Source: an uncultured Actinomycetes bacterium
GTDB taxonomy: Bacteria > Actinomycetota > Thermoleophilia > RBG-16-64-13
Assembly (NCBI GenBank): GCA_963806155.1
Contig: CAWDXC010000009.1
Location: 120,726 to 184,725, forward strand
DNA length: 64,000 nucleotides
Reading direction: 5' to 3'
The notes beneath the pieces are model-generated. The model was not told the DNA's origin. It searched no databases and worked only from the letters and a program-made list of their open reading frames with translations. Numbering within the stretch: position 1 is the first letter of the stretch; each line of letters starts with the position of its first letter. The position numbers and the translations under genes are program-made. Positions 23,607 through 52,126 of the stretch are shown piece after piece.

Positions 23607-24206
23607 TCAGCGCGGCGTGCCGGCGCCGACCAGGCGCCTCTCGCTTCCGCCAAGCAACCGATCCAAAGCATCCCGCACTTCCATAGACGTTGGGTCGGTC
23701 CTGTTGAGGTAGCTCCGTTGCCTCAGGAAGTCGTTGACGAGTGCGATGACCGACCAATATCGCGTCGTTCCGCCCACGTCCCGATTCGTTTCGTACCTCC
23801 GGAACCACTCCACGACCTCCGCCCACCGCCAGACTCGGCTCCGTCCCGCGCCCACCCTTGTCGCGGGAGCCGGAAAATCACCGGGGCCTCTCTCCCCCCG
23901 TATCAGCAGGCGAATGCTCTCGTTCGTTCTCGTCATCCTTCTGGCGATGTCTGCGATAGTCACCAGGTCGTCGGGCTCGACGCGCGCGACTCGGGAACCG
24001 ACTCCAGCCTTCTCGATGGTTTGAATGGCCGAGACCACGGCCTCCAAGATGTCTCCGGCTTCCCGGGAGAAATCCGCGTAGGGAATGCCTGTGCACTGCC
24101 CGATCAGGGCGTCCGCAGCACCTGCCTCATGGAAGGCTTCAAGCATCTCGTCAGTGAGTTCGCCGCCCTCAAGCTCGAGGATCAGCGTGAAATCATATGT
24201 CTCCAA
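23607..24206 (-). CDS. Putative HicB-like antitoxin with an HTH domain
   Basis: YDFTLIL...DA.IG....YADF.REA...AV.SAI..IE, then LVT.ADIA.R....ESIRL...G.RGPG.FPAP; follows a small toxin-like gene. Confidence 0.6.
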   Translation of the reverse strand: METYDFTLILELEGGELTDEMLEAFHEAGAADALIGQCTGIPYADFSREAGDILEAVVSAIQTIEKAGVGSRVARVEPDDLVTIADIARRMTRTNESIRLLIRGERGPGDFPAPATRVGAGRSRVWRWAEVVEWFRRYETNRDVGGTTRYWSVIALVNDFLRQRSYLNRTDPTSMEVRDALDRLLGGSERRLVGAGTPR

Positions 24207-24822: not shown

Positions 24823-25983
24823 TCACTTCGCCAGCCGCACCAGCATGGTCTTGGCGAAGGCGGCATGGCCGCGCCCGATCCACTTGACCACATGCATGAA
24901 GGCGATCAGCACAAGCGCGCCCACGATCACCGCGAACGGTATCCCCCACATTGGGAACCACCAGTGGTAGGTGACGCCCTCCCAGAGGAAGGTCTGGTCC
25001 CCCAGCCACCCGGTCCACGCCCACAGCGGGGTCGTGATCAGGCTGAGCCCCACAGCGATCCCGGTCACCGCGATGGTGAAGTAGATGACGCCCAGGGGCA
25101 GCATCAGGACCATGTAGAGCATGGAGAGCCAGGTCCGGCCGTCCTTCACCCAGAACCAGATCCGCTGGAAGAAGCCGGCGTTGGGAGGTTCGGCCCGCGG
25201 CCTGCGCGGCATGCGCGTCCCCAGGAACAGCTCCACGATCCGCCCTTCGAACAGCGCTATGGCGCGCACGATCCCCAACACCAGGAGGAACAGCGGCACG
25301 CCGATGATCAGTATCAGCAGCCCTCCGGCCGTCGAGACTCCGGTGACCACGATGGTGAAGTAGGCGATGCCCGTACCCAGCGCGATGATCATGTAGACGA
25401 GCGCTTTGTAGACCGCCGGGTCGATGAAGACGCCAAAGATCTGCCGCCAGACGCTGGGCGGCGCCACTGCTCCGGCCGCAGCGGTGGCCCCGGCCGCGGC
25501 CAGGCCGGCCTGGACGCCGGTCGGGAGGGGCGCGACAGGGGTGACGGGTGGGGCGGGCGCCACTGGCGCGGTGGACGCCACAGGGGCGGCCGTGATCTGG
25601 GCCTGAGTCACGGTCTGAGCCTCAGCGTCGTCCGAAGCCGCAGTCGAAACGGCTACGGCGGCGGCGGCCGCCGCCTCAACTACAGCCGGTTCGGCGCTTG
25701 CCGGCGCCGTGAGAACCTCAGCCCCGATGGCGACCGCAGCGGGCTCGGCGCCCATTGCGGCTGGTGCGGCAGCCACCGGCATCCCCAGGTACGCGGCCGC
25801 CACTTCCTCCGGCGTACCCGTACCCCTCGGCGACGGTCGCGAACTGGCCTCCCGCTGCCATCTCCGCCTGCAGGTACTCCTCAGCGTCGAACAGGGCGTC
25901 CTGCACCAGCGCCGGGTCCGCCCCCGCAGAACGACAGCGCCGCCTGCAGCTCCCTCAGATAGCTGTCTATGTCACTGAGCCAC
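24823..25983 (-). CDS. HAAS-like helical domain plus 'Sensor' (PF13796-like) 4TM domain protein; frameshifts in the N-terminal part
   Basis: IDSYLRELQAAL...ADPALVQDALFDAEEYL...YG(T)PEEVAAAYL, an Ala/Pro linker, then YKALVYM...GIAYFTIVVTG...IGVP...RTW...Y..L.LPLG.IYF; overlaps the padR stop. Confidence 0.75.
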
Positions 25984-26380
25984 GATGTCCCTCCAGAACG
26001 GCGTCCACGAATTCACGAGTCCTGATCCACGAGTCCTGCCACAGGCCGACCGCCTGCCGGCCCTCCTCGGTGACTTGGTAGTAGCGGCGAGGCGGACCCG
26101 TCACCGAAGGCTCCACCTCGCTCGTGAGCAGCCCCCCGGCCTCGAGCGACCGCAGCACCGGGTAGAGCGTCCCCTGCTTGACCGGCAGTCCCCCGCCGAA
26201 GCCCTCGAGCTCCTTGGCGATCTGATAGCCGTAGAGCGGCTTGTCCGCGTGAGCGAGGAGCGCCAGGAGGGCGAGCGACACGATGCCCGAGCTCAGCTCC
26301 TTCTGGAACTTGCGCACGCTGGCCGACACGACCTCCGGCGTATCCTCATCGAACTCTGGTAGTGCTGGTATATCTGTCAT
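25967..26380 (-). CDS. padR: PadR-family transcriptional regulator
   Basis: YGYQIAKEL...GTLYPVLRSLE..GL......PPRRYY..T..GR. Confidence 0.95.
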   Translation of the reverse strand: MTDIPALPEFDEDTPEVVSASVRKFQKELSSGIVSLALLALLAHADKPLYGYQIAKELEGFGGGLPVKQGTLYPVLRSLEAGGLLTSEVEPSVTGPPRRYYQVTEEGRQAVGLWQDSWIRTREFVDAVLEGHRGSVT

Positions 26381-26503: not shown

Positions 26504-26537
26504 ACTATACTACTAAGTTCGTAATAGTCAAGAGGTC
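26504..26537 (-). promoter_or_regulatory. padR promoter/operator
   Basis: GACCTC-TTGACT-attacgaacttagtag-TATAGT; imperfect palindrome ACTA-N12-TAGT; 29/34 identical to 31923-31956. Confidence 0.85.
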
Positions 26538-26739
26538 GGAGTAGCAGACGTGAGAATCGGGGAAGTCCGTGGGCAAGATGTTGGGACGGGAGATGCGCGA
26601 GAACGGGAGTGAGTCTGGGACGAAGCGGCTGAGTCACCCGCGCAACAGCGAGGCCGTTAGTAGCTGTGGGCATCTCCAAGGGGCCGACCAAGGTGCTCTA
26701 CTCGCACATCGGCCTGCAATTGACAACCAGGGCCGCGTT

Positions 26740-28623
26740 TCACAACGACTTTGCCCCCGCTTGGCACAATGCGTCGTAGTTCGCATCGAATGCCGGCTCA
26801 CCGTCCGGCACAAACAAGACTGATCCGTCGCGCCCGCGAGTGAGCAGAACTCGGTAGCTGTTCAGCCTCAACTTGTGCGGGTCTCGGGCGTGTGATCGGC
26901 GCTGAGGGGGGCTTTGCCAGGCTCGCCCGTCCCAGCGAAGGTCGACACCCCAGCCGACAATCGGCAGATCGAGTTCCAGACCCTGACACTGGAATTCGGT
27001 CGCGGCCGAACTGAGCTGGCAGCAGGAGCCGAGTGATTCGGGATCATCGTAGTACCAGGGGCCTACCCTCATCCGCTGGGTGCTGTAGAAGTCGGTGGGG
27101 ATCCCAAAGGGATTCAGGCGTGCTTTGGACGAGCCCAGAAACCCATATCGCTTATCCTGCTCGACGCGGTACCTCTCTCGTGCGTAGCCGGTCGCTCGCT
27201 GTAAGTCCCTCGTGATGTAGAGCCGATAGCCCTGCTTCGCCATCTTCTCCGAGAGCGTCGCCGCGTCATCCAGCCTGCCGCCGAGTAAGTCCTGCACCCA
27301 GTTCTGGACATCCTCAGCCAGGTGGGAGCGGAGCGATATGTCCAGGTCCAGTGCCTCGCTCTCGTCGAGCCGACTTGCTGCCGTGAACAAACCCGCGATC
27401 TTGCTCGGGCAGTGCACGATCCAGGGGTCATGACTGTTCCTAATGGCATCGTTCCACTGACCGAGACCGGCCTCCTCGCCCAGATAGATCTCCTGACCCT
27501 CCCCTATGAGACCCACCATCAACGCCCAGGACCGCTTGCGCGAGCCAATGAGCAGGAAGTCCTCAGGTTCGGAGAGATTGTGCCCCCTCTTCTCGTGGAC
27601 TCGCTCAGCATCCCACGCCCGCTGAGCCTCGTCGTATACCCAGACGTGCTCCTCAGGCATGCGAGCGCTGGTCCCTCCATACTGTTTGAGAAAGCCATGG
27701 ACATCCTGAACGAACACCTTGCTTTGAAGAGCGTACTGGAGAACCTCCACGAGCGGGCCATTGCCAGACAGAAAGACGGCCGAACGTTTGCTTCCCATGT
27801 CTCCAAAATGGTTCTCGTAGACGAACTGCAGACCAACCAGGGTCTTCCCCGAGCCCGGGACTCCGGTGATGAGAGCAAGATGCAGCTCTTGAGCGTTGCG
27901 CGCCTTATGCGCCGCCGCGACCAGCGTGGCTATGGTCTCCGGGATGCCGGCGCTCTGCGCCTTGCGGATCTGGGGCAAGGGTTCGTGCTCGAAGATCCGA
28001 CGCGCGGCGCTCACCAGGGAGGGCAGCGGTGAATAGTCGGCGTCGATCCAAGCCTCCGCTTCGACTGGCTCATCTGGCGCTCGCCGTTCCAAGGTGACAA
28101 TCGCTTCCTCTAGGCCCTGGGGATTGACCACGGTGACGTCCCCCAGTTGACGCCTCGCCTCCCTACCGCGGGTCAGCACGAGGAGGGGGTCAACCAGCTT
28201 GTCGTGAGAAGCCGCGTGGTAGTGACGAAGATCGCGCGCGTACGCGGCAACCTGGTCCACGTGCGCTTGCAGAAGAGTGCCGGACTCTTTGAACTCGAGC
28301 ACCATGACCTGAGACCCAGTGAGGATCACCACATCTGGACGCCGGCCCCGTTCTCGCGGCAATTCATACTCGAAGACGACGGCCCAGTTCTCGGCCCTCG
28401 GATTAGACGCGACGGCCCCGCCGAGCACTGCGGTCATTATTGTGAACTCACCCCGCCAGGCTTCCATCTGGCCACCATCTGGCTGCATACCCATCAATTG
28501 CAGGTGGCGGGCACGAAGCGAAGCCAGCAGGTCGGACTGCGTCAGTTCCAGGAAATCGGAGACCGTGCCGTGCCAGCCACAAGGAGCCGTGCTGAAGCCG
28601 GCGACCGCGCTATCTGAAGCCAT
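26740..28623 (-). CDS. PD-(D/E)XK nuclease plus DUF2075 (Schlafen-group-3-like) helicase
   Basis: FEYELP...RRPDVV.L......LEFK; Walker A GVPGSGKT, Walker B YDEAQR, QGLELD and YRVLLTRGR. Confidence 0.85.
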   Translation of the reverse strand: MASDSAVAGFSTAPCGWHGTVSDFLELTQSDLLASLRARHLQLMGMQPDGGQMEAWRGEFTIMTAVLGGAVASNPRAENWAVVFEYELPRERGRRPDVVILTGSQVMVLEFKESGTLLQAHVDQVAAYARDLRHYHAASHDKLVDPLLVLTRGREARRQLGDVTVVNPQGLEEAIVTLERRAPDEPVEAEAWIDADYSPLPSLVSAARRIFEHEPLPQIRKAQSAGIPETIATLVAAAHKARNAQELHLALITGVPGSGKTLVGLQFVYENHFGDMGSKRSAVFLSGNGPLVEVLQYALQSKVFVQDVHGFLKQYGGTSARMPEEHVWVYDEAQRAWDAERVHEKRGHNLSEPEDFLLIGSRKRSWALMVGLIGEGQEIYLGEEAGLGQWNDAIRNSHDPWIVHCPSKIAGLFTAASRLDESEALDLDISLRSHLAEDVQNWVQDLLGGRLDDAATLSEKMAKQGYRLYITRDLQRATGYARERYRVEQDKRYGFLGSSKARLNPFGIPTDFYSTQRMRVGPWYYDDPESLGSCCQLSSAATEFQCQGLELDLPIVGWGVDLRWDGRAWQSPPQRRSHARDPHKLRLNSYRVLLTRGRDGSVLFVPDGEPAFDANYDALCQAGAKSL

Positions 28624-28821
28624 ATTCGCCGCCATGCACCCCGCCCTAAGCAAGACAAGACGTTCTCGGTTCCTCTTCCCGCTGCTGGGTTAAGAAGAGC
28701 CTGTTCATCCTACAACTTCGTTTGGATACACAGAAGATCAATTGGAGTCACAGCCGCTCGAAAAGATCGCGGCAGCCCGCCACCCGTGGCCCTGGACTCA
28801 CCCCGGGCGGTATCTCACCAC

Positions 28822-28848
28822 CCGGTCCAGACAGCACCAAATCTTGCC
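28822..28848 (+). repeat. 27-bp direct repeat, copy A
   Basis: CCGGTCCAGACAGCACCAAATCTTGCC; 26/27 identical to 31839-31865. Confidence 0.85.
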
Positions 28849-28962
28849 AACATCCCCCCGTCGCCTCAAACGCCCTGGGCTCCCAACCCACTTCTGGTTC
28901 CCGCAGACGCCTCCTCCTTCACAGCGCAACCACTTTGTCCTTGAACCGGCCGAGGTCCCCCT

Positions 28963-29691
28963 TCAGTCCTGCGCCGAACCGATCCACTTAGCCCGCACTG
29001 TGGCGTTGGGGTCGACGACCTCCCGGACCTCGAAACAGTCGGCCAGCCCCCGGAAGGCCTCAAGTCGGTGATCGATCCCCGAGGTTCGGTCTTCCTCGGC
29101 CACCGCCCTCAAGTAGGTCACCAAGGGGATCCCCTTTGACGTGGTCTCAGGCTCCAGGTTCACCAGCACCAGTCCCAGTCTCTCCAACTCCCCGCGGAGG
29201 TGCGCGGGCTTCCAGCCGTCGTGCAGGATGTCCATCCGCTTGCCCATGTCGCCGAACCGCTCGAGGAAGCGCTCGATTTGAGCCTCGTCCGCCCCACCGC
29301 TGAGGCCGAAGCCGTTCATCAGGGAGTGACGGCCGATCGGGATGAGGGCGAAGCCGAACTCCTGGTCGAGGGAGACGATCCTGTCCTTGCACGCCGGACA
29401 GAACCACACCGACCACCGGCTGCCGCTCCTCAGCACGTGGCGCCCGCAACAATCGCACAGTCTGGCCCTCTCGTTGAAGTCGTAGCCCGGCCACCGGGGT
29501 TCGCCGCGCGGCGCGCACCGGCAGGTCTGCCGAGCAAAGTTCCCGTGCTCGGGTGACGGCGGGTCGAAGAGGTCCATGCAGGTCGTGCAGATAGACAAGG
29601 TCCGGTACTCCGGGCGGAAGCCGCAGCCGGCCAGGGGGTCCGGGGTGTTCTTGGCTCGCCGCTTGGGCTGTTCTTGGGGCAGATCGCTCAT
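28963..29691 (-). CDS. Cys-rich hypothetical protein (probable Zn binding)
   Basis: GAGGAG RBS; CxxC, CxC, CxCC and CxxC motifs within 242 aa. Confidence 0.7.
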   Translation of the reverse strand: MSDLPQEQPKRRAKNTPDPLAGCGFRPEYRTLSICTTCMDLFDPPSPEHGNFARQTCRCAPRGEPRWPGYDFNERARLCDCCGRHVLRSGSRWSVWFCPACKDRIVSLDQEFGFALIPIGRHSLMNGFGLSGGADEAQIERFLERFGDMGKRMDILHDGWKPAHLRGELERLGLVLVNLEPETTSKGIPLVTYLRAVAEEDRTSGIDHRLEAFRGLADCFEVREVVDPNATVRAKWIGSAQD

Positions 29692-29969
29692 GTCGCTCTC
29701 CTCTCACCGGGTCGGGACGACCCCGCCCGCCTGGACGCAAAAGGGAGAGCACGACGCCCGGGTACTGGAACCCAGTCCCAGGAACGAGAAGACCCGCGAC
29801 TCCCTTCCATCAGGAGCGCGGGTATCTCCGACGCCGGACGTTTTGTTGCCCGCGGCTGATCGCCTCGGACCACATCTCCACCCTCTGGCGGAAAGGCACC
29901 TTGGGTGTCCGGACCCAGGTTGCCGGCCTCGACGTCTCCATCGAGACACTCCTGATGCTTGGCGCTAGC

Positions 29970-30329
29970 CTACTCCCACGGGGCTGCGGAGACAAGGGCC
30001 AGCTCCCTGAACCACTCGAGCCGATCGGGCTTCCCCCTCGTAGTCTCGCCGCTGATTGGCCGCGCTGGCGCTCGGCAGCACGAAGACCCGGGCCCCACCG
30101 ATGAGGAGAGGCTGTTCGCCGTAGCCCGAGACGCTCCGATAGCCCAGGTGGCTCAGGACCGCTTTCGCCGATCCTTTGCCGTGGAACGCGACCCAGCCTG
30201 GCTGGAATCTGCCGATCTTAGCGACGAGCGCCGCGGGGTCGTAAGCATCGCGCACGCAGAGGCCCTGCCGGCCGCCGTGCCGCAGATCACCAGTCGCAGA
30301 TCGGGATTCAGGTAGTCAGGAAGGATCAA
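29970..30329 (-). pseudogene. mug: Mismatch-specific uracil-DNA glycosylase with an internal deletion
   Basis: MILPDYLNPDLRLVICGTAAGRAS jumps to DPAALVAKIGRFQP..VAF.GK...VFVLPSAS.AN; the central GHYY..PGNRFW...GLTD segment is absent. Confidence 0.8.
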
Positions 30330-30340
30330 GAGCTGCCGGC

Positions 30341-30745
30341 CTAGGCGACGACCTGACTGCTGAGGATGGCGGCGATACGCCCCACATCGAGGTCAAGCCG
30401 TTCCGGACTGACCAGGCATTCGCCCGTTTCCATGTAGATGCCCACCCGCACCCGTTTACTCTTCACCTGGACCCAGGTGGCCGACACCAGAGGGAACCTC
30501 CGTCCTCCGGCACCGTCAAGGCATCCGTCGAAATAGGATCTGAGATCCTCCTTGCGAAGGTCCGTACCCAGCGGCACTTCGACTTCACCGGCCAGACCGT
30601 TGGCGGTGCCTGCACCCAGCAGGTTGCCATGGCGATCGACAAGAGCCACGCCAAATACCGGTTCGGTCGTGCGCCTGGCCCAGCGCGAGGCAGATGGCGA
30701 GGCAGATGCCGGTACCACGTGCGCCTTGACAACTCGCCCATTCAT
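30341..30745 (-). CDS. Hypothetical protein
   Basis: 134-aa ORF whose stop lies 11 nt upstream of the mug start; no motif recognised. Confidence 0.45.
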   Translation of the reverse strand: MNGRVVKAHVVPASASPSASRWARRTTEPVFGVALVDRHGNLLGAGTANGLAGEVEVPLGTDLRKEDLRSYFDGCLDGAGGRRFPLVSATWVQVKSKRVRVGIYMETGECLVSPERLDLDVGRIAAILSSQVVA

Positions 30746-31028
30746 GAGGGGACCCCACCTCTGTATCTTGCATTTTGAGTTGCCTCGCGGGTTGCCTTGC
30801 GGAGGTCGATCTGGCCGTCGGAACCGAGTCTGAGGTGCTGGATCTAGGGTGCGCCGTGCCCTGCAGCGGGACTTTGGTGGGCTGCGACCGAGGGTATTCT
30901 TTCGCCGCTCATGCTGACGATCGTCTCTGCACGAACCATGGCAGTTCGGGCCCGATGACGCAAGGGGCCTTCACACGAAATCGCCGCAATTTGCTTGAGA
31001 AACAAGAGCGGTTCTTGAGGAACAACAG

Positions 31029-31343
31029 TCACGCCACCCGCAACGGCTTGATCCGCCCCACCTGCTCTCCGATCGACTGCTCGGCCTCCCAGAGATCGAC
31101 CGCCCGCTGAGCGTTCAACCAGAAGTCCGGGCTATTGCCGAACAGGCGGCCCAGTCGTAGCGCCATCTCGGGGCTCAAGGAACGACGCTCCCGAAGAAGC
31201 TCGTTGATCGTCTGGCGCGATACACCAAGCGCCCCGGCCAGGCCGGCGACGGTGAGTCCATAGTCGGGCATGAAGTCCTCGCGGAGCATCTCTCCCGGAT
31301 GAGTCGGGCGGACAGTCCTTCTGACAGCGTTGCGCAAGCTCAC
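31029..31343 (-). CDS. higA: HigA/VapI-family antitoxin
   Basis: PTHPGEMLREDF...T...LA..LGVSRQTINEL..ERR.LSPEMALRL.R.FG.SP.FWLN.Q. Confidence 0.93.
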   Translation of the reverse strand: MSLRNAVRRTVRPTHPGEMLREDFMPDYGLTVAGLAGALGVSRQTINELLRERRSLSPEMALRLGRLFGNSPDFWLNAQRAVDLWEAEQSIGEQVGRIKPLRVA

Positions 31344-31356
31344 ATCGGACCCCGTG

Positions 31357-31490
31357 TCAATGGTAGTCGATGATTTCCACGTCGTATGCATCAGCGTCCA
31401 CAAACCGGAAGCAGATGCGCCACCGATCGTTGATGGAGATCGAGTACTGTCCCCTCCTGTCCCCTTCAAGTCGGCGAACGTCTTGATCAC
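31357..31490 (-). pseudogene. higB: HigB toxin with a large internal deletion
   Basis: MIKTFAD joined directly to LKG(D)RRGQYSISINDRWRICFRFVDADAYDVEIIDYH*; only about 44 aa; one G appears to be missing in a G run. Confidence 0.85.
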
Positions 31491-31495
31491 GATGG

Positions 31496-31524
31496 AGTGT
31501 AATGTGTCACGTGACGCTTGTCAA
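31496..31524 (-). promoter_or_regulatory. higBA promoter with a palindromic operator
   Basis: TTGACA-N17-TACACT; palindrome GTCACGTGAC at 31506-31515 in the spacer; GTG start 5 nt after the -10 (leaderless). Confidence 0.85.
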
Positions 31525-31838
31525 CAGGATGAATTGCCGGGTGGAGAAGATTCTGCCCATCACCAAACGCGCAGTTCCGCTTCACCGCGGGTTCAATAGT
31601 CACGATGAGGCCCCAGAAAAGCAGTACCCCGCCGGTGGCCTTCAGCGGAGCCGACGAGGAGCAAGAACGATGAGAATGCAGGAACATCTTCTCCATGTCA
31701 ACGGGGAGTGCCCGATCTCTCGCGCTGTGCACCGCACCACGATGCCGCACGATTGCGACAGAGAAATCCAACCAAGGGTGGATTCTGGAGACCCCGCCCA
31801 CCCCGCGGCCAGCCTGACCGTCGGCACCTCCTCCCCAT

Positions 31839-31865
31839 CCGGTCCAGACAGCACCAGATCTTGCC
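31839..31865 (+). repeat. 27-bp direct repeat, copy B
   Basis: CCGGTCCAGACAGCACCAGATCTTGCC. Confidence 0.85.
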
Positions 31866-31922
31866 CCCGTCGCCCGTGCCTCGTCCCCTCCCCCAGCCTC
31901 CTTTTCCGAGACCCCCTATCAA

Positions 31923-31956
31923 GACCTCTTGACTATTATTAACTTCGTACTATACT
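31923..31956 (+). promoter_or_regulatory. Promoter/operator of ABC exporter copy 1, nearly identical to the padR promoter
   Basis: GACCTC-TTGACT-attattaacttcgtac-TATACT. Confidence 0.85.
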
Positions 31957-32033
31957 TGGTTTGCTAGCAAGCGCAGGCTACGAATGGTTTAAAGTGGGTA
32001 CCAAAGTACGAGAACTGGCACAGGGGGCGACGA

Positions 32034-33192
32034 ATGCGAACTCTACGAAACGTCTTCCGGCGCAAACTGAGGGTCCTCCTCACTATCTTCGGGATCACCA
32101 TCGGGGTGCTGGCCTTGGTGGTCATGGGAAGCATGGCCGAGAAGATCGACCTGCTCGTTTCGGGCGGAACCGAGTATTACTCCGACAAAGTCACGGTCGG
32201 GGCGGAGGGCAGCTCTTTGTTCTCGAGCGCGCCGCTCTCCCTCAGCAAGTACGACGCCATCAAGAGCGTGCCGGGTGTGGCCGAGGTCTCGGCCGATCTC
32301 GACACCCTGCTCGACACCGAAGCCTCCGTGTCCTTCGGGATGCCTCCCATGATCTCCGGCAGCGACATGCGCGGCCAGGATCTGGAAAGCTTCGAGATGT
32401 CCTATGCCGAGGGACGGGCACTGACCCCGGACGACATCGGGTCGGTGGTGGTGGGATCCGATCTGGTCGATAAGCTCGGCGCGGAGGTAGGCGGCATCGT
32501 CACCGTGCGCGGCGAGCAGTACACGGTCGTCGGGATACTCGACAAGACTCTGACCGCCCCGGACACCACAGTGGAGATGACCCTCCCCGACGCTCAGCGG
32601 ATCTTTATGCAGGATCTGCCCGAGGTGATCCGCGGCCAGGTGGACCAGGCCGATCTGGTCACCGGGTTCGTCGTCTACCCCACGCCGGGCACCGATCCGG
32701 AGGAGCTGGCCACGGCCATCAACGAGGCAGTCCCCGGGGTGCTGGCCACCGGCCCGAAGGCGTTCCAGGAGCAGATAGCGAGCGCCATGGGGATCTTCAA
32801 CGCCATCCTTTACGGGATCGCGATCATCGCGCTTTTCGTGGGCGGGCTCTCGGTCATCAACACCATGACCATGTCGGTGAACGAGCGTACCCGGGAGATC
32901 GGAGTGCGCAAGGCCATCGGCGCCTCCGACGGCCAGATCGTGGGGCAGTTCCTGAGCGAGTCCGGGTTCATCGGCTTGATCGGTGGGGTCTCCGGGCTGT
33001 TCCTGGGTTGGCTGGCTGTGACCGTGACCGACAAACTGCTGGAGCCTCGCAACCTCGATCTGTTCCTCGTCACTCCCAGGCTGGCGATCGGCTCGGTCGC
33101 CTTCGCCATACTTCCTCGGTCTGGTGAGCGGACTCTACCCCTCCCTGCACGCGGCCCGGCTGCAGCCGGTCCTCGCCCTTCGCTACGAATAG
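32034..33192 (+). CDS. MacB/FtsX-type ABC transporter permease, copy 1; frameshift near 33112
   Basis: R..LTIFGITIGV, INTMTMSVNERTREIGVRKAIGA; the corrected frame ends GLYPSLHAARLQPVLALRYE*. Confidence 0.9.
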
Positions 33193-33201
33193 GAGAGAAC
33201 G

Positions 33202-34023
33202 ATGCACGACACGACAAGCACCATCCCGCGCCGCGAGACCGACGGGCGGCGAAACCGCCGACCCCGGGGAAGGCCGGGAACAGGCGCGCGAGCGACAGGG
33301 CCGCCGGCCGCGCGACGACCGGAAGGGCCGCGAAACCGATCATCCGCGGCGAAGCGATCCACAAACGCTACGTGATGGGCGAGGACAACTACGTAGACGC
33401 CCTGCAGGACGCCTCGCTCGAGATCCAGGAAGGCGAGATGGTGGCGAGTCATGGGCCCGTCGGGCTCCGGGAAGTCCACCCTGCTCCACATCCTCGGCTG
33501 CCTCGACTCTGTCGACTCGGGCGAGGTGTGGCTGGACGGGCGCCGGGTGGACAGGCTGAGCCGGCGCGACCTGGCCGCGCTACGGCGGAACGAGGTGGGG
33601 TTCATCTTCCAGACCTTCAACCTGGTGCCGAGCTTCACCGCCATCGAGAACGTCATGCTGGCGGCCGAGTACGCGGGGAAGGGCAGGCGCGAAGCCCGCG
33701 AAGCGGCGCGGAGCGCGCTGGCCCAGGTGGGACTGGCCGACCGGGAGGAGCACCGGCCCACCGAGCTCTCCGGCGGTCAGCAGCAGCGGGTAGCCATCGC
33801 CCGGGCTCTGGTGAACGGCCCCAAGGTCATCTTCGGGGACGAGCCCACCGGCAACCTGGACTCCGCCAGCTCGGCCGAGATCGTCCAGATGATGCACCAG
33901 ATCAACCGCGAGACGGGCACGACCTTCGTCCTGGTCACCCACGACCCGGGCGTCGCCGCGACCTGCGACCGGGTGTTCCAGATGCTGGACGGGCGGGTGA
34001 CGAACGGGCACCACGCCGACTGA
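33202..34023 (+). CDS. ABC ATP-binding protein (LolD/MacB type), copy 1; frameshifts in the 5' part
   Basis: GPSGSGKST, LSGGQQQRVAIARAL, DEPTGNLD; shifts before and at about 33450. Confidence 0.9.
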
Positions 34024-35320: not shown

Positions 35321-35421
35321 TGACCGGGATACGAGGCGCCGGCTGCCGGGGCATTGCGCTCCAACGCCGGGCAGCGGACAATGACGGTGCCGTACACACC
35401 GCTACGAAAGCGCCCCCTACC

Positions 35422-37026
35422 ATGCCCGACCACGTCAGACGAACAACTGGTCGCGGCCCGCCGACGGATCGCCGCGGCCTACGATCCGCTCTTGCTCGAA
35501 GACGCCGGCCACCGGCTGGCAGAATCGCTGGCCGCCCACCTGGCTCGGGTAGAGCGGTCGGAGGGTCCGGTGCTGCCCTGGGTAGAGCCCCCGGACGGCG
35601 TCCGCGAGGCGGCGGCGCTGTTGCACGCGGCGTCCGCGCGCGCCGCGCAGGACGCGGCCCAGGAAGCGAGCGCCGCTCCGGGAGCCGGCTGCGGCGGAGG
35701 CCGCCAGCCCCAGCCGCAGAGACCGGCCCTCCCGCAGCCGACCTCCCTGATCTCTTCGCCCGACTCGTCAAGATCATGCTCGACCGGGGTCTCAACCTGC
35801 ACAACCCCCGGTACATCGGTCACCAGGTGGCGGCCTCTGTGCCGATCGCCGGGTTGTTCGACGCCGTGGGTTCGGTCACCAATCAATCGACGGCCATCTA
35901 CGAGATGGGTCCGTGGTCGACCGCCGTCGAGCAGGCCATGATCGATGAGTTGGGCGCAGCCATCGGCTGGACGCCCGGCAACTTCGCCGGTGCCGTCACC
36001 CACGGCGGGTCGCTGGCTAACCTGACCGCCCTGCTGACCGCGCGCAACGTGGCTCTGGGCGACGTATGGGAGCGCGGGCTGACGCGCGGCGGGCCGCAGC
36101 CGGTGCTCCTTGCCCACGCCGAAGCCCACTACAGCGTGGCTCGAGCCGCGGGCATCCTTGGTTTGGGCAGCCGGCAGATCGTGCGGGTCGGCCTGGACGA
36201 CCGGGGGCGCATGGACCCGCAACAATTGGATGCAGAACTTAACCGCCTACGGGCCCAAGGCGATCCGATCGTGGCGGTCACCGCCTGCGCCTGCGCCACC
36301 CCCACCGGAGCCTTCGATCCGCTGGAGGATATCGCCGCCGTCTGCCGACATCATGGAGTCTGGCTTCATGTCGACGCCGCGCACGGAGGCGCGGCCGTGC
36401 TCAGCGACCGGCACAGGCACTTGGTAGCCGGGCTCGAGCAGGCCGACAGCGTCGCCTGGGACGCCCACAAGATGCTGTTCGTGCCGGCCCTCTGCGCCTT
36501 CGTGTTCTACCGGGAAAAGCGCCACGGCTTCGCCGCGTTCAGCCAGGACGCGCCCTACCTCTTCGATCCGGCCGCTCCCGGCTTGGCCGACTACGACAGC
36601 AGCATGAAGACGGTGGAGTGCACCAAGCGGGCGGCGGCCTTCGGGCTGTGGGGGGTGTGGTCGTTGTTCGGCCGGCAGTTGTTCGCCGACATGGTCGACG
36701 TCACCTTCGCCTTGGGCCGCACGTTCTACGAGAAGCTACTGGCGGCGGAGGACTTCGTCCCCCTGCACGAGCCGCAATGCAACATCGTGGTCTTCCGCCA
36801 CGTCCCGGCCGAACTGCGCGATGCGCCGACCGAGCGCGTGGGCGAATTCCAACTCGAACTGCGCCGCCGGATCATCGAGTCGGGCGAGTTCTATATCGTG
36901 CCGTTCAAGCGGGATGGGGTGGGCGCCTTGCGCGTCACCATCATCAACCCGCTCACCACCCCCGCGCACCTCGACCAGTTGATGGACGCCCTGCGGCGGC
37001 AGGGGCGCGAGTTGCTGGAGGGTTAG
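35422..37026 (+). CDS. Group II PLP-dependent amino-acid decarboxylase; two compensating frameshifts near the 5' end
   Basis: HGGSLANLTAL, AHYSV, HVDAAHGG, DAHK (PLP lysine) and CNIV.FR. Confidence 0.92.
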   Translation: MPDHVRRTTGRGPPTDRRGLRSALARRRRPPAGRIAGRPPGSGRAVGGSGAALGRAPGRRPRGGGAVARGVRARRAGRGPGSERRSGSRLRRRPPAPAAETGPPAADLPDLFARLVKIMLDRGLNLHNPRYIGHQVAASVPIAGLFDAVGSVTNQSTAIYEMGPWSTAVEQAMIDELGAAIGWTPGNFAGAVTHGGSLANLTALLTARNVALGDVWERGLTRGGPQPVLLAHAEAHYSVARAAGILGLGSRQIVRVGLDDRGRMDPQQLDAELNRLRAQGDPIVAVTACACATPTGAFDPLEDIAAVCRHHGVWLHVDAAHGGAAVLSDRHRHLVAGLEQADSVAWDAHKMLFVPALCAFVFYREKRHGFAAFSQDAPYLFDPAAPGLADYDSSMKTVECTKRAAAFGLWGVWSLFGRQLFADMVDVTFALGRTFYEKLLAAEDFVPLHEPQCNIVVFRHVPAELRDAPTERVGEFQLELRRRIIESGEFYIVPFKRDGVGALRVTIINPLTTPAHLDQLMDALRRQGRELLEG

Positions 37027-44123: not shown

Positions 44124-44893
44124 CGGAATCAGTCCCCAGATAGGCCTCGATGACCGCGGGGTCGGCCACGCATTCCCGCGGCGTCCCCTCGATCAGCTTC
44201 TGGCCGTAGTTGAGTACGACGCTTCTGGCACAGAGCCCCAGGACGGCGCGCACGTTGTGCTCGACGACGATGATGGTCGTGCCCCTCGAGCTGTTGACGT
44301 TCTTGATGATCCTGATCATCGACGCCGTCTCCTCGGCGTTCATGCCGGTGAGCGGCTCGTCGAGCAGAAGAAGGGTGGGGTCGGACGCGAGTGCGACCGC
44401 CACACACAATTCCCGCTGACTGCCATGGGGCAGGTTGGTGCACAACTCGTGAGTCTTGTCCGTCAGGCCTACGAAACCCAGGAGCTCCATGACAGCGCGC
44501 GACCACTTCCGGCTGTTTCCTCACGTGCTCGGTAGCTCCGCCCGATCACGCCGAAGGGACCGTGCTTCGTCTGCAGGTAAGAGCCGGCAATAACGTTCTC
44601 GAGCACGGTCATGCTCTTGAAGAGGGCGTTCTTCTGGAAGACCCGGGCGATGCCCAGATGGGCCCGGCGATGGGGCGGGTAGCGGGTGATGTTGCGCCCC
44701 CGGAAGGTGATGGTGCCGCCCGAGACCTTCAGGGTCCCGTCGATGAGGTTAAGCAGGGTGCTCTTCCCGGCGCCGTTAGGGCCGATCAGGCCGAGGATCT
44801 CGCCTTCTTCGACCATCAGGTCGACTTTGTTCACGGCTGCCAGACCGCCGAAATGCCGGCTGACAGATCGGTGACTTCGAGCAGTGGCGCCAT
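44113..44893 (-). CDS. livG: LIV-type ABC ATP-binding subunit; frameshifts near 44865 and 44500
   Basis: MAPLLEVTDL..HFGGL.AV, GPNGAGKST, LPHG.QR, LLDEP..G and EAYLG. Confidence 0.88.
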
Positions 44894-44898
44894 CACCG

Positions 44899-45978
44899 TC
44901 ACCGTTCCCCCGGCTCGTCGCCAGACGAGGCGCCGGCTTCATGGGCGCGAGTTCGGCGGCTGCCTGGTCGGGGCCCCGAGTAGCCGACGCCGTCCTCAGC
45001 CGTCTTCCTCGCCTCCAGTCCCGAATCTGTGCCGGGAGGCCGACCAGGCCCATCGGCATGAAGATCATCACCAGGATGGCGATGGCGCCGGTGATCATCG
45101 GCTGGTACTGCTGCATGGAACGCGTATTCTCGGCCAGCAGGGTGAGCACGAACGTGCCGACCAGCGGTCCGATGAAGTAGTCCTTGCCCCCCACCACCAT
45201 GTAGACCAGCAGGTAGATCGACATGGTGACGCCGAACCGCGACGTGGTGTCCGGGCTCAGATTGTGCTGGTAGGACGCGAACAGCGCTCCCGAGAGGCCG
45301 GCCATGAAGGCGGCGATGACGAAGTTCACCATCTTGTAGCCGATGACGTTGATCCCCACCGCGCCGGCCAGAGTGTTGTCGTCCTTGATGGCCCTCCACT
45401 GGAAGTTGATGTACGCCCGCTCGACGTAGTAGAGGATGAGCAAGGCTATCAGAACCACACCGATGGCGATGTAGTAGTAGTTGCCGGGCTTGTTGAAGTC
45501 CACCACTCCGACGAAGGGGACACTCTGCTTTCCCGGACCCGGAACCCCGGTCAGCCCCAGCGAGCCGCCGGTGAGGGAGGTCCAGTAGTAGGCGATCAGG
45601 CGGAAGGTCTCGGCCGTGAGGAGCGTGAGGATAGAGAAGTAGATCCCCCTCACCTTGAGGAAGGGGTAGGCCAGTAGCAGGGCGACGAAGGCCGAGATCA
45701 AGGCGCTCAGGATCAGCGACGGCCAGAACGAGAGACCCCCCTTCATCATCAGCGTGGCTTGGGTGTAGGCCCCTATGATTGCGAAGCCCACCTGCCCGAG
45801 AGAGATCTCGTTGATCAGGGTCACGCTGCGAAGACTGCTCACCATCAGGATGTTGATGGCGAGCAAGGCACAGGACGGTCAGCCAGTATGCGTTGCCCGA
45901 GAGGATTCGAGGCATCAGGAAAACGACGACGACGATCGCGACCCACGGGAGGATCTTGGCCAGTCCCCTCCTAGTCAT
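44899..45978 (-). CDS. livM: LIV-type ABC permease; frameshifts near 45870 and 44990
   Basis: SLGQ.GF..IGAY, G.YF.ILTL..AE, TGG..GL.G.P and F.GPLVG. Confidence 0.88.
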   Translation of the reverse strand: MTRRGLAKILPWVAIVVVVFLMPRILSGNAYWLTVLCLARHQHPDGEQSSQRDPDQRDLSRAGGLRNHRGLHPSHADDEGGSLVLAVADPERLDLGLRRPATGLPLPQGEGDLLLYPHAPHGRDLPPDRLLLDLPHRRLAGADRGSGSGKAECPLRRSGGLQQARQLLLHRHRCGSDSLAHPLLRRAGVHQLPVEGHQGRQHSGRRGGDQRHRLQDGELRHRRLHGRPLGSAVRVLPAQSEPGHHVAVRRHHVDLPAGLHGGGGQGLLHRTAGRHVRAHPAGREYAFHAAVPADDHRRHRHPGDDLHADGPGRPPGTDSGLEARKTAEDGVGYSGPRPGSRRTRAHEAGASSGDEPGER

Positions 45979-46838
45979 GGCCGAGAAGCCCCTTGGGCCG
46001 GAAGAGCAGGACCAGGATGACGATGACCAGCGGAGCCACCGCCGCCGCCGCCGGGCCGAAGAACACAGGGACGATGCCGTCAATGAGACCCAGGATCAAA
46101 CCTCCGATCACCGCTCCCGGGACGCTGCCCAGGCCGCCCAGCACGATGATCACGAGGCCCTTGATCATGGGAAGTCCACCCATGTAGGGCTGCAACTGCA
46201 GGATGGAACCGGCCAAGGCCCCGGCAAGTGCCGCCAGCGCACAGCCGATGGCCATGGCGGACATCGACATCCTGTTGGGATTGATGCCCTTGAGGAAGGA
46301 GCCCTTCACGGTTCTGCGCGCTCGCGACCATCGCCAATCCCAGGCGGGTCCGTTTCAGGAACGCGTACAGCAGAACCAGTGCGAGCACCGAGAAGCCGAT
46401 GGCCAGGATGCGGTCTTTGGGGATCGCGGCCCCGAACAGGTTGAACGATCCTGAGATGAGATAGGGGAGGCTCTTCGTGTAGAGCCCGAACCCCACGACG
46501 ACCGCACTGGCCAGTATCAGGGTCAGGCCGGTGGATATGACTATGGAGCTGAGCACGGGGTCACGGCCCGGTCGGGCTCGGAACAGCCCCCGCTCCAAAA
46601 GGGTCCCGAAGACGGCCATCAGCACCATGGCCACGGCGATCGCCGGATAGAGACCGAATCCCCGTCCCACGAAATAGTAGGTGGCAAAGGCCCCGAGCAT
46701 GTATATCTCGCCGTGGGCGAGCTGGAGGATGCCCATGATGCTCAAGATCAACGTGAGGCCCAGGGCCATCAAGACGTAGAGCCAGCCGAGGGCTATACCG
46801 TTGACTATTGCCTGCAACCAGAGATCTGGGGAGTTCAA
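45971..46838 (-). CDS. livH: LIV-type ABC permease; frameshift near 46305
   Basis: LMALGLTL..SI.GI..LAHGE, RT.LGLA..A.AQN and LGGLGS..GA.IGG. Confidence 0.9.
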
Positions 46839-48624: not shown

Positions 48625-49956
48625 TCAGGGAGCGAGACCGACCTCCTGGCGTACGGTATGCGTTATGGCCGTACGCGAGCGTGCCCCGACCTTGGCCGCG
48701 ATGCTATGCATGTGCTTCTTCACCGTGCACTCGGCGATGAACAGCGCGTGGGCGATCTCCTTGTTGGTCCCACCGGCCATCACCCGGTCGAGTACTTCGA
48801 TCTCCCGATCGGTAAGAGCAAAACGCTCCTTCAGCGGCTCGTTCCACCGCCGCGCGACCCGGTCGCGGGGTTCGAGAGTGATGAGCAGGCCCGGATTCCC
48901 CTGATCGAGGGTGACCGCGCGAGAACTGACACCAACGTTGCAGCTTTCGGCGAGCAGATCGGGGTTGCTCAGCGCATGTCCAACGAACGAAGCCGCCCCC
49001 ATCTCAGGCGAAGAGCCGAAGGGACGAGTCGCCCCCTGGGACGGCGACCATGCCCGGTCGCCGATCCCCTCGACCAGCAGGGGAATACCATCGACCTGCC
49101 CGAGGGGTGAGCAGAGGTCGCGGGCGATCTCGTTGCAATAGAGCACCCGTCCGCGCGTGTCGCACACGATCACGCCTTTGTCTTCGGCCGTCTGCAGCAC
49201 GGAAGCGACGCTTGCGGAAACGATCTTCTCGAGATGATTGCCCACGAAGGGGGCGATCATCTCCATGATGGCTGCTTCCTCGGCAGAAAAAGGATCCCGC
49301 TGCCGCGCGCGGTGGAGACAGAGCGCCCCGCGCGCCAGCGGAGTGGACGACATGAACGCGACAAGGTCGTAATAGATCCCGCCGCTCCTCCAGAAATCGT
49401 TGTAGAACTCGGTGGAGAGCCAGCTACTGTAGTCTACGACCTCCCTGAGGTCGAACACGGTGGGGATAGCAGGACGGTAAGGTGAAAAGCTGCCGCCTTT
49501 GATGAAATCGGCCAACCGCGTCGGGTCGAGGTCGCAGTAGTAGTCGGCGTAGAGCTTCGGGAAGGCCGGATCCTGATTATGGACGACGAACTCCAACTCT
49601 CTGGTGAGCGGGTTGCACAGGATAAGAGCGGCCTGCTCGGCCTGAAGCTCGCCAGAGATGCACTCGAGGAGCCGGCCACAGCCTTCCATGTCGGCGGTGG
49701 ATGTGCTGATCTCCTGGAGGGTGCTGAGTATGCCCGCGCAACGCTCGGGACTTACCGCGGTCGCTCGTGCGGTCTTTGGTTGGGCGAGCGGGGAAGATCC
49801 GGGGTCGCGACCGCTGGGGCCGGAATCGCCGTGATGCACGTTCGGGGTCGACGCTGAGGGCGCCGAGCGCTTAGCTCGATGCGAGGGCCCGCGTGAAATC
49901 GGTCGCTTGCCCGGATGGGTGATCCCGTACAGACCTGTCGTCGGCACGTCGGCCAT
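48625..49956 (-). CDS. LuxR-family regulator with an N-terminal GAF-like sensor
   Basis: C-terminal LTDREIEVL.....G.TNKEIA..LFI...TVKKH...I..K; GAF-like Y.D.Y..LDP...HR....FS.EE. Confidence 0.9.
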   Translation of the reverse strand: MADVPTTGLYGITHPGKRPISRGPSHRAKRSAPSASTPNVHHGDSGPSGRDPGSSPLAQPKTARATAVSPERCAGILSTLQEISTSTADMEGCGRLLECISGELQAEQAALILCNPLTRELEFVVHNQDPAFPKLYADYYCDLDPTRLADFIKGGSFSPYRPAIPTVFDLREVVDYSSWLSTEFYNDFWRSGGIYYDLVAFMSSTPLARGALCLHRARQRDPFSAEEAAIMEMIAPFVGNHLEKIVSASVASVLQTAEDKGVIVCDTRGRVLYCNEIARDLCSPLGQVDGIPLLVEGIGDRAWSPSQGATRPFGSSPEMGAASFVGHALSNPDLLAESCNVGVSSRAVTLDQGNPGLLITLEPRDRVARRWNEPLKERFALTDREIEVLDRVMAGGTNKEIAHALFIAECTVKKHMHSIAAKVGARSRTAITHTVRQEVGLAP

Positions 49957-50275
49957 TGCACCCCACAGCCCGGTAGCCTCGGCTAGAGAACAATCATCTA
50001 GAAGGCGCCTAGCGGTCCAGCCCCCCGTTCCACCGCCAAGGGCATCATCGTTGCAGACGTAGACCAAACAGTCAAGGAAGCCAAGAACTCCTGGGCCCTG
50101 CCTGAGGGGCACGTGCGCTGATTTCCTGCCGTGCTTTCACGTTCCTGCGACACGAAGTCGCACCCATACCGGTATACTGGCTTGCCGAATCACGAAGCTT
50201 TCTTCCGCTCGGCGTCCGCGCCCGGCGGCGGCATCTGGACCGAGCATATCAAGCAAGCGCGACAGGGGGTAACGC

Positions 50276-51433
50276 GTGCGTACCTTACGGAACGTATTCC
50301 GGCGGAAGCTAAGGGTGCTGCTTACCATCTTTGGGATAACCATCGGCGTGCTGGCGCTCGTGGTCATGGGAAGCATGGCCGAGAAGATCAACCTCCTCGT
50401 CTCGGGCGGCGTCCGCTACTACTCCGACAAGGTGATCGTGGCGGCCGAGGGCTCCAACATGATGTCCAGCGGCGTGCTCTCCTACAGCAAGCTGGACGAG
50501 ATCAGGGCCGTGCCCGGGGTGGCCGAAGTCCAGGGCGAGGTCGCCACCCTGCTCGATACCGAGGCCTCCATCTCGTTCGGCATGCCCTCTATTATCGGCG
50601 GTAGCGACATGCGCGGCGTGGACTACGAGAGCTTCAAGATCGACTACTCGGAGGGGCGCGACCTGCGCCCGGACGAGACCGGCTCGGTCGTGGTGGGATC
50701 TGATCTGGTCAAGAAGCTCGGGGCCAAGGTGGGCGAGTATGTGACCGTACGGGGTGAACAGTTCCTGGTCGTGGGGATAATGGACAAGACCCTGACCGCT
50801 CCGGACAACTCCGTCTACACAAGCCTTGCCGACGCCCAGCGGATCTTCGCAAGCGACCTCCCAGAGATCGTGAGAGATCAGGTCGACCCGGCGGATCTGG
50901 TCACCGACTTCGTCGCCTATCCCACGCCGGGCACCGATCCCGAGGAATTGGCCGTGGCCATCAACCAGGCAGTCGAGGGGGTGCAGGCCTCCGGCCCGAG
51001 CTTCTTCCAGGACCAGATCGCGAGCGCCACGCAGATCTTCAACGCCATCCTTTACGGGATCGCGATCATCGCCCTCTTCGTGGGCGGGCTTTCGGTCATC
51101 AACACCATGACCATGTCGGTTAACGAGCGCACCCGCGAGATCGGGGTGCGCAAAGCCATCGGCGCCTCCGACGGCCAGATCGTGCGGCAGTTCCTGACCG
51201 AGGCTGGGGTTATCGGCCTGATCGGCGGGATCTCCGGCTTGTTCCTCGGTTGGATCGCGGCCGTCGTGGCCAACGCGCTGCTCGAGTCGTCGAACCTGAA
51301 CCTCTTCCTGGTCACCCCGAGGCTGGCCATCGGAGCGGTCGTATTCGCCGTCGTCCTGGGCCTGGTGAGCGGGCTCTATCCTTCCCTGCACGCAGCCCGG
51401 CTGGAGCCGGTCGTCGCCCTCCGGTACGAATAG
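50276..51433 (+). CDS. MacB/FtsX-type ABC transporter permease, copy 2 (intact)
   Basis: First 38 aa identical to copy 1; same motifs; ends LRYE*. Confidence 0.93.
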   Translation: MRTLRNVFRRKLRVLLTIFGITIGVLALVVMGSMAEKINLLVSGGVRYYSDKVIVAAEGSNMMSSGVLSYSKLDEIRAVPGVAEVQGEVATLLDTEASISFGMPSIIGGSDMRGVDYESFKIDYSEGRDLRPDETGSVVVGSDLVKKLGAKVGEYVTVRGEQFLVVGIMDKTLTAPDNSVYTSLADAQRIFASDLPEIVRDQVDPADLVTDFVAYPTPGTDPEELAVAINQAVEGVQASGPSFFQDQIASATQIFNAILYGIAIIALFVGGLSVINTMTMSVNERTREIGVRKAIGASDGQIVRQFLTEAGVIGLIGGISGLFLGWIAAVVANALLESSNLNLFLVTPRLAIGAVVFAVVLGLVSGLYPSLHAARLEPVVALRYE

Positions 51434-51439
51434 GAGCTC

Positions 51440-52126
51440 GTGATGCCAAGCGTCATCAAAGGAATAGACATCCACAAGCGCTACGTCATGGGCAAGGACA
51501 ACTTCGTCGATGCCCTTCGGGGAGCGTCGCTCGAGGTCGAAGAGGGCGAGATGATGGGGATCATGGGCCCGTCTGGCTCCGGGAAGTCGACGCTGCTCCA
51601 CATCCTCGGCTGCCTCGATACCCTGAACTCAGGGGAGGTCTGGCTGGCCGAGCGCCGGGTGGACAAGCTCAACCGGCGCGATCTTGCCCTGCTGAGACGG
51701 AACGAGGTGGGGTTCATCTTCCAGACTTACAACCTGGTGCCCAGCCTGACTGCCATCGAGAACGTCATGTTGGCCGCGGAGTACGCCGGGAAAGGGAGGC
51801 ACGAAGCCCGCGAAGCGGCGCAGAGCGCCCTCGCTCATGTGGGGCTCGCCGATCGTGAGCGGCATCGGCCCACCGAGCTTTCCGGAGGTCAGCAGCAGCG
51901 GGTGGCCATCGCCCGAGCCCTGGTCAACGGTCCCAAAGTCATCTTCGGGGACGAGCCCACCGGCAACCTGGATTCAGCCAGTTCGGCCGAGGTTGTGGCT
52001 ATGCTGCACGGCATCAACCGCAACACAGGCACGACGTTTGTGATGGTCACGCACGACCCGGGAGTGGCGGAGACCTGCGACCGCGTGCTCCACATGTTGG
52101 ACGGGCTGGTGACAAACTCCCACTGA
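51440..52126 (+). CDS. ABC ATP-binding protein, copy 2 (intact)
   Basis: GPSGSGKST, LSGGQQQR and DEPTGNLD. Confidence 0.95.
   Translation: MMPSVIKGIDIHKRYVMGKDNFVDALRGASLEVEEGEMMGIMGPSGSGKSTLLHILGCLDTLNSGEVWLAERRVDKLNRRDLALLRRNEVGFIFQTYNLVPSLTAIENVMLAAEYAGKGRHEAREAAQSALAHVGLADRERHRPTELSGGQQQRVAIARALVNGPKVIFGDEPTGNLDSASSAEVVAMLHGINRNTGTTFVMVTHDPGVAETCDRVLHMLDGLVTNSH

Follow-up and report, generated by a model that had tools for sequence, protein, structure and literature searches.

A candidate PadR-HAAS regulon with a putative operator shared by a MacB-type exporter in an uncultured actinobacterium

According to a proposal by Ravi et al. (2024, PMC11237479), pairs of genes encoding a HAAS-domain protein and a PadR-like winged helix-turn-helix protein could replace two-component systems in the response to envelope signals. 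We describe such a pair in a 64,000-nucleotide stretch of DNA (hereafter the window) from an uncultured Actinomycetes bacterium, in which a padR gene and the gene for its membrane-bound HAAS/Sensor partner appear to share a putative operator with a MacB-type ATP-binding cassette (ABC) exporter. As in the published pairs, a standalone short PadR gene is followed by a gene encoding an N-terminal HAAS domain, with its GxP motif, fused to a multi-transmembrane module. The module is different: here it is the four-transmembrane 'Sensor' domain PF13796, which is unnamed in that study and would fit its class of 'uncharacterized 6TM, 4TM, and 2TM' modules (PMC11237479). Unlike the systems described there, ours has no PspC, Toastrack or LiaF partner in the window, and it goes beyond them in having a defined putative operator and a second target operon, that of the exporter.

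Two systems from Listeria resemble this arrangement. In Listeria monocytogenes, the PadR-type regulator LftR, encoded in an operon with LftS (DUF1048), represses the unlinked operon of the ABC exporter LieAB (PMC4517056). There, as here, a PadR-type regulator is encoded beside a partner of the HAAS superfamily and has an ABC exporter as its target, in our case a predicted one. However, LftS is assigned only DUF1048, without a membrane sensor module, and LieAB is annotated as the daunorubicin-resistance type rather than the MacB/FtsX type (PMC4517056). The LftR system also comes from Bacillota, with operators that have no known relation to ours. The second regulator, LltR, represses its own lmo0600-lmo0601 operon about 150-fold, and that operon encodes a multi-spanning membrane protein of the HAAS type (DUF1700) (PMC6624303). 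The LltR operon thus joins a padR gene to a gene for a HAAS-type membrane protein, as our locus does, but its downstream partner is a DUF4097 protein instead of an exporter and it has no PF13796 module.

Three other kinds of system share single features with the locus. PF13796 is reported as the N-terminal input region of actinobacterial HisKA_3 histidine kinases (PMC10663231). In those proteins the same membrane input module is coupled to a kinase and a response regulator, whereas here it is joined to HAAS and PadR without phosphorelay domains. The acidobacterial PadR paralogues (TIGR03433) and ADOP FtsX-type permeases (TIGR03434) likewise pair a PadR with a MacB/FtsX-type permease. These two families are usually encoded side by side. 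They gave the best NCBIfam matches to our PadR (54.9, cut-off 101.8) and permease (79.5, cut-off 622.3), with both scores far under the curated cut-offs, and the ADOP permeases are duplicated, unlike the permease in the window. Lastly, a Bce-type flux-sensing resistance module has a ten-transmembrane BceB-type permease paired with the histidine kinase BceS and with BceR. The permease here has 385 amino acids and a single FtsX domain, and no kinase or receiver adjoins the exporter. The resemblance lies only in the logic.

Two promoters with a common 19-bp dyad

The features on which the comparison rests are as follows.

26504..26537, minus strand: padR promoter and putative operator, GACCTCTTGACTATTACGAACTTAGTAGTATAGT (read from 26537 to 26504); -35 box TTGACT at 26531-26526, 19-bp dyad at 26526-26508, -10 box TATAGT at 26509-26504; from the sequence, the promoter scan, a dyad matrix score of 33.1 bits and equivalents in 78 of 80 related loci
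31923..31956, plus strand: exporter promoter and putative operator, GACCTCTTGACTATTATTAACTTCGTACTATACT; -35 box TTGACT at 31929-31934, 19-bp dyad at 31934-31952, -10 box TATACT at 31951-31956; from the sequence, the promoter scan, a dyad matrix score of 33.3 bits and the same layout before orthologous permeases
31957..32033, plus strand: exporter 5' leader of about 78 nucleotides, containing the conserved stretch AGCAAGCGCAGGCT...AATGGTT; ribosome-binding site GGGGG

A preliminary description of this DNA had noted two promoters of the form TTGACT-N16-TATA(G/C)T that match at 29 of 34 positions and face outward 5.4 kb apart, and the sequence and a promoter scan both confirmed this. A scan for consensus (sigma-70-type) promoters called the two sites independently, as TTGACT-16-TATAGT and TTGACT-16-TATACT, each with 10 of 12 hexamer matches, and it returned 3 sites in 10 kb compared to 0.9 expected. 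When we searched the full 64 kb with a degenerate 34-mer, allowing up to 3 mismatches, only these two sites were found (0 expected from 100 shuffles). A repeat finder recovered them as an inverted pair of 32 nucleotides, 88% complementary, with 5385 nucleotides separating the arms.

The conserved element, TAnT(A/G)nnAAnTTnn(T/C)AnTA, is a dyad of 19 bp in the spacer that separates the -35 box from the -10 box. Its left edge overlaps the TTGACT box and its right edge overlaps the -10 box, so a protein bound there would occupy the promoter spacer. The preliminary description had instead placed an ACTA-N12-TA(G/C)T palindrome over the promoters. The center of that palindrome is 1.5 bp off the axis conserved in relatives, and we rejected the ACTA-N12-TAGT version as an operator because of this offset and its poor symmetry at the exporter site.

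We determined the conservation of the dyad in 80 related loci, which were returned by one scan of a genome collection with a PadR alignment and are designated here by L numbers. They range from metagenome-assembled genomes (MAGs) of the Gaiellales/Thermoleophilia (74-95% PadR identity) to MAGs of the Coriobacteriia (about 60-65%). The dyad sequence was found 40-210 nucleotides 5' of padR in almost all of these loci, and matrix hits upstream of padR were obtained in 78. Among 59 distinct orthologous sites, positions ±1, ±2, ±6, ±8 and ±9 from the axis were nearly invariant and complementary. Positions ±3 to ±5 were complementary in 28, 28 and 40 sites, compared to 23.4, 21.8 and 30.0 expected from column composition. 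Many loci from Coriobacteriia had a second dyad 33 bp downstream (center to center) without a preceding -35 hexamer, indicating that the dyad is separable from the promoter. One example of tandem dyads upstream of padR is in L043 (9881-9899 and 9914-9932), where the second overlaps the likely transcription start region.

The dyad was also specific. The 80 loci and the window together comprise 1.376 Mb, in which a symmetrised 19-mer matrix with a threshold of at least 16 bits gave 124 matches; a block-shuffled control gave none. All were 5' of padR or of an orthologous MacB-type exporter except for two weak extra matches, one of which was about 70 nucleotides upstream of another MacB-type permease (L074). 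Scarcity of the motif before unrelated genes, which the preliminary description had made a test of its proposal, was therefore found throughout this sequence. In the window, the two sites scored close to the maximum possible 35.0 bits and no further site reached even 8 bits.

In addition, we scanned metagenomes with the promoter-plus-dyad pattern, a search that is unbiased as to gene content. In contigs with a high guanine-plus-cytosine (GC) content, about 41 sites were followed by padR, usually with Sensor, and one was followed by a MacB-type permease (L090). Another full promoter-plus-dyad site (L174, 677-704 in match orientation, on a contig of 65% GC) was followed by a gene for a membrane-anchored DUF2807 protein, which may also belong to the regulon in some relatives. 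About half of the pattern matches were on contigs below about 45% GC and were discarded as chance. Two matches in high-GC contigs (L103 and L114) were also set aside as look-alike operators of other families; they were AT-rich palindromes adjoining winged-helix repressors of the HxlR and BlaI types.

The encoded proteins and the dyad-linked exporters

The genes of the two operons, and a second copy of the exporter, are located as follows.

25967..26380, minus strand: padR, encoding a short PadR-type winged-helix regulator of 137 amino acids (PF03551)
24823..25983, minus strand: gene for a membrane protein with a HAAS domain, an Ala/Pro-rich linker and a four-transmembrane Sensor domain (from PF13796 and tblastn)
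32034..33192, plus strand: MacB-type permease (MacB_PCD and FtsX) of exporter copy 1, with stop codon TAG at 33190-33192
33202..34023, plus strand: ABC ATPase of exporter copy 1, with a variable N-terminal extension (from orthologue alignment)
50276-51433 and 51440-52126: permease and ATPase of exporter copy 2, intact

The padR product matched PF03551 over residues 39-110 with 75.7 bits (cut-off 27). Its best matches among solved structures, as judged by sequence comparison, were 4ejo, 4esf, 3f8b and 5zhc (chains of 98-132 residues, aligned to residues 26-130), and the closest solved relatives are short PadR proteins, including LmrR and Rv3488. Its homologues were 74-94% identical. We assign it on this basis to the short PadR subfamily, which has a core of about 110 amino acids and a single C-terminal helix (LmrR, BcPadR, Rv3488). 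Members of that subfamily bind a palindromic operator as dimers and regulate their own genes, and the 19-bp dyad conserved within the padR promoter in 78 of 80 loci is indirect support for this here.

The HAAS/Sensor gene overlaps the padR stop codon in the window, as it does in L005 and the intact orthologues, and in nearly all of the 80 loci tblastn found padR followed by this gene. In intact orthologues the HAAS domain (PF22564) is followed by the Ala/Pro-rich linker and then by Sensor (PF13796). The HAAS scores were 41.5 bits in L047, 26.8 in L005 and 19.5 in L014 (cut-off 27), and Sensor was C-terminal to HAAS in all three and in the window, where it scored 112.6 bits. The HAAS region of the window is 94.7% identical to that of L005 over 38 amino acids, and the GxP motif of the third helix is present in both (GYGTPEEVAAAYLG, GTP, in the window; GYGSPEEVAAAYLG, GSP, in L005). 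As read from the sequence, the Sensor part has four hydrophobic segments with short outside loops, and the repeat finder detected an internal repeat in it. The gene is predicted to encode a HAAS-domain protein beside a standalone PadR, with HAAS fused to a multi-transmembrane module, and the architecture of the intact orthologues is the one proposed for HAAS-PadR signalling (PMC11237479), in agreement with the preliminary description.

Exporter copy 1 matched the L005 exporter by tblastn and by nucleotide alignment. The L005 exporter scored 79.6 bits for MacB_PCD, 83.9 for FtsX and 117.9 for ABC_tran, consistent with a MacB-type exporter consisting of a MacB_PCD plus FtsX permease and a separate ABC ATPase. 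The exporter, PadR and the sensor were all below curated cut-offs in NCBIfam, and the exporter matches to named equivalogs (MacB, LolCDE, FtsEX, DevCA) were all far below. In an alignment of eight promoter and leader regions, the leader segment of the exporter promoters was conserved and its distance to the start codon was nearly fixed; no known RNA family was detected by Rfam in the leader of padR or of the exporter.

An exporter divergently upstream of padR, with its own dyad, was present in the window and in L004, L005, L006, L010, L012 and L014. We also picked exporter loci by homology to the intact L005 permease, which avoids selection through padR, and scanned their contexts for the dyad. 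It was present in L201 (32.6 bits), L202 (33.8 bits), L203 (25.4 bits) and the first exporter pair of L205 (25.6 bits). The L202 exporter keeps the dyad with no padR within 6 kb. The L203 exporter keeps it at a distance of about 22 kb from padR, on a contig that also contains L018. The motif is thus found before orthologous exporters, six adjoining padR and four picked by homology, a second point on which the original proposal depended.

There was no dyad upstream of the paralogues in L204 and L206, the second pair in L205, or copy 2 in the window. The copy 1 permease is 77% identical to that of copy 2 by tblastn, and the DNA of the two copies is 76% identical. Copy 2 has neither the 34-mer nor the dyad, and there is a divergent LuxR/GerE-type gene upstream. 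That gene and a Liv-type transporter (window 48625-52126) are kept as neighbors in the L005 genome (L206, syntenic with copy 2). Because the neighbors are kept and the dyad is absent, copy 2 appears to be an older paralogue under different control, and it is predicted to lie outside the regulon.

The dyad-linked ATPases have 252-305 amino acids, compared to 227-233 in the copy-2-type and L204 paralogues without a dyad; the ATPase of the dyad-less second pair in L205 is intermediate (249). The additional length is due to an N-terminal extension (33202-33340 in the window, and in the orthologues) that is poorly conserved and has roughly 25-80 residues. Compared with copy 2, copy 1 has a '128-nt insertion'; we considered whether it was a disruption and rejected this, because copy-1 orthologues all vary there: a variable stretch of 160-200 nucleotides encodes the extension.

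A proposed regulon and the alternatives to it

Sequence elements that are conserved and specific have been shown above, as have the linkage of the genes and the architectures of their products. Together these make it likely that both sites serve as operators in a small regulon of a Gaiellales/Thermoleophilia-type actinobacterium, in which PadR represses the padR-HAAS/Sensor operon and the MacB-type exporter operon and a signal is relayed through HAAS. We infer that a short PadR-type dimer would bind the 19-bp dyad that fills the spacer of the near-consensus TTGACT-N16-TAnnnT promoter, and would block RNA polymerase both at its own padR-HAAS/Sensor promoter and at the exporter promoter. The four-transmembrane protein, made from the same transcript as padR, would bind PadR through its cytoplasmic HAAS domain. 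A presumed membrane or envelope signal would cause HAAS/Sensor to alter the hold of PadR on DNA and derepress both operons, making more exporter for its presumed substrate and resetting regulator and sensor. Specificity, orthologues, synteny and the HAAS plus Sensor architecture all strengthen the earlier reading of sensor, PadR and exporter as one circuit. Corrections to it concern the register of the palindrome, exporter copy 2, which is predicted to lie outside, and the sensor and exporter genes, which are frame-broken in this assembly. We regard it as a well-supported prediction that this is a real and fairly ordinary stress-sensing and export circuit, present in many uncultured actinobacteria.

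Several observations weigh against such a regulon. In about 70 of the 80 padR loci no exporter was present within 10 kb, which would make it an accessory rather than a universal target. The variable dyad positions show modest covariation, part of which common descent could explain. One type of PadR operator is ATGT-N8-ACAT, and the dyad differs from this motif. Finally, with three frame breaks in the sensor gene and at least three in the exporter, the circuit might be non-functional in this organism.

The frame breaks raise the possibility that the circuit is decaying here, with the sensor gene and copy 1 as pseudogenes, copy 2 having taken over, and the promoters and operators as leftovers. 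Using tblastn with the intact 438-amino-acid L005 orthologue, we mapped the window HAAS/Sensor gene to three frames. The +1 insertions responsible are near 25975, 25930 and 25815, all within about 160 nucleotides in the HAAS region. In exporter copy 1, at least three breaks fall within about 350 nucleotides at the permease end and ATPase start, and all are absent from five orthologues. There is a +1 insertion near 33110 in the permease, the ATG frame of the ATPase differs from that of the conserved core and stops after 57 codons, and a further +1 insertion occurs near 33445. This clustering and the presence of an intact paralogue, copy 2, are what would be expected from decay. However, similar breaks occur in window genes that have nothing to do with the circuit. 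Those for a LivG-type ATPase and a LivH-type permease are split, that for a molybdopterin oxidoreductase is in at least four or five pieces, and that for a pyridoxal-dependent decarboxylase (about 35354-37026) is probably split as well. We located these breaks from Pfam profile coordinates on the split pieces, because a survey of frames by third-codon-position GC was too noisy for frameshift counts. The regions with this kind of break are as follows.

44143-44900, 45989-46793, 55755-58212 and about 35354-37026: split-gene regions of the window, with the same kind of frame breaks

Because unrelated genes are broken alike, the assembly appears to contain many single-base indels; an error-prone assembly is likelier than gene decay, and we do not call the sensor and exporter genes pseudogenes. 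The exporter of L012 is also split, and both operators are near the maximum matrix score, unlike relics. Related MAGs with names beginning MFD are long-read assemblies, which was likewise counted against decay. On balance it seems unlikely that the circuit is decaying, and we dropped decay of copy 1 and the sensor gene as the principal explanation.

Another possibility is that the dyad is bound by a different regulator, for example a DUF2089 helix-turn-helix protein whose gene lies between padR and the exporter in several relatives. In many relatives, a DUF2089 gene, a membrane open reading frame of 94-96 amino acids (orf96) and a SHOCT-like_DUF2089-C gene precede the dyad-linked exporter, at the following locations.

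L201 4609-5723, L203 4700-5858 and L205 2174-3323, and also in L004, L006, L012 and L090: DUF2089/SHOCT cluster

The DUF2089-orf96-SHOCT cluster precedes the exporter in L004, L006, L012, L201, L203 and L205, and a SHOCT-like open reading frame is present in L090. Together with the look-alike palindromes beside HxlR-type and BlaI-type repressors, this arrangement would fit another regulator. Yet the window, L005, L010 and L014 retain both operators with the cluster not detectable in the sequence searched, the Coriobacteriia loci have the dyad and padR without exporter or DUF2089, and padR is the sole gene always adjoining the dyad. We consider a different regulator quite improbable, and the cluster was also rejected as an obligatory component, being absent from the window and undetected in the sequence searched from L005, L010 and L014.

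Least probable of all, and to be given very little weight, is that the shared 34-mer is just a strong promoter, conserved or duplicated, that lacks a repressor site. In its favor, each site is a near-consensus promoter and the identity between them runs 6 nucleotides upstream of the -35 box (GACCTC). Against it, promoter spacers are normally not conserved, whereas the dyad in this one does not vary between classes of Actinomycetota and is also found where there is no -35 box; outside the 34-mer, the flanks of the two window sites are unrelated.

A further reading concerns the sensor. Rather than sensing a free ligand, the HAAS/Sensor protein might be an intramembrane partner that monitors the activity of the MacB-type exporter, with Bce-like flux sensing wired to PadR where Bce systems have a kinase and response regulator, and with the ATPase extension specific to the dyad-linked orthologues as a contact or regulatory surface. 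By analogy this is conceivable, and we hold it to be doubtful. If it were true, the PF13796 input module would be interchangeable between histidine kinases and HAAS-PadR across the Actinomycetota.

Surroundings of the locus and biological meaning

The two operons had been suggested to have once been adjacent and later separated, and comparison of gene order agrees with this. L014 and L010 have padR directly beside the exporter, in divergent orientation, and elsewhere the inserts differ. The DUF2089-orf96-SHOCT-like cluster, transcribed with the exporter, lies between the two in L004, L006, L012 and L201, and an SLFN-type helicase and orf134 do so in L005 and the window. Between the two window sites there are the SLFN-type helicase (26740-28653, minus strand), orf242, orf134 and a HigA-like helix-turn-helix gene. 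Relative to L005, the window has two added blocks, at about 31005-31761 (the HigA-like gene) and about 28807-30254 (orf242). Among the PADLOC candidate defence families, PDC-S41 was matched by the helicase (E 1.6e-135) and PDC-M06B by orf199 (23607-24206, minus strand; E 5e-25), so that the padR locus appears to sit among defence-like accessory genes.

Other observations concern the added blocks and their edges. There is a SAM-I/IV riboswitch match at 29832-29963 (minus strand; 46.3 bits, gathering score 41.1) about 140 nucleotides upstream of orf242 (28963-29691, minus strand), which encodes a Cys-rich protein of 242 amino acids. Both are in a block absent from L005. The protein had no Pfam or PADLOC match, making orf242 an unusual gene behind a SAM riboswitch. 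A third promoter-like site, TTGACA-17-TACACT (31524-31496, minus strand), ends 6 nucleotides ahead of the GTG start (31490) of the HigA-like gene, which suggests a leaderless transcript. A 45-nucleotide direct repeat, 84% identical, is present on the plus strand at 28814-28858, at the edge of the orf242 block, and at 31831-31875, just upstream of the exporter promoter. There is a similar stretch in L001 at 7120-7171.

The locus fits what is already known of the HAAS-PadR kind of system and of PadR repressors that control exporters. What appears to be new is the fusion to PF13796, a defined predicted operator, and the repeated occurrence, in an uncultured lineage, of an exporter as predicted second target. 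HAAS-PadR pairs were proposed on comparative-genomic grounds, and the cited literature gives few worked examples and no defined operator. This locus supplies a predicted 19-bp operator that is lineage-wide, a two-promoter regulon, and a clear MacB-type exporter target in abundant uncultured soil actinobacteria, and direct tests of HAAS-PadR are now simple to design. It also indicates that a regulator and its target can be driven apart by accessory and defence-like genes gathering in the divergent region with the predicted regulation unbroken, since a copy of the promoter and operator is retained on either side.

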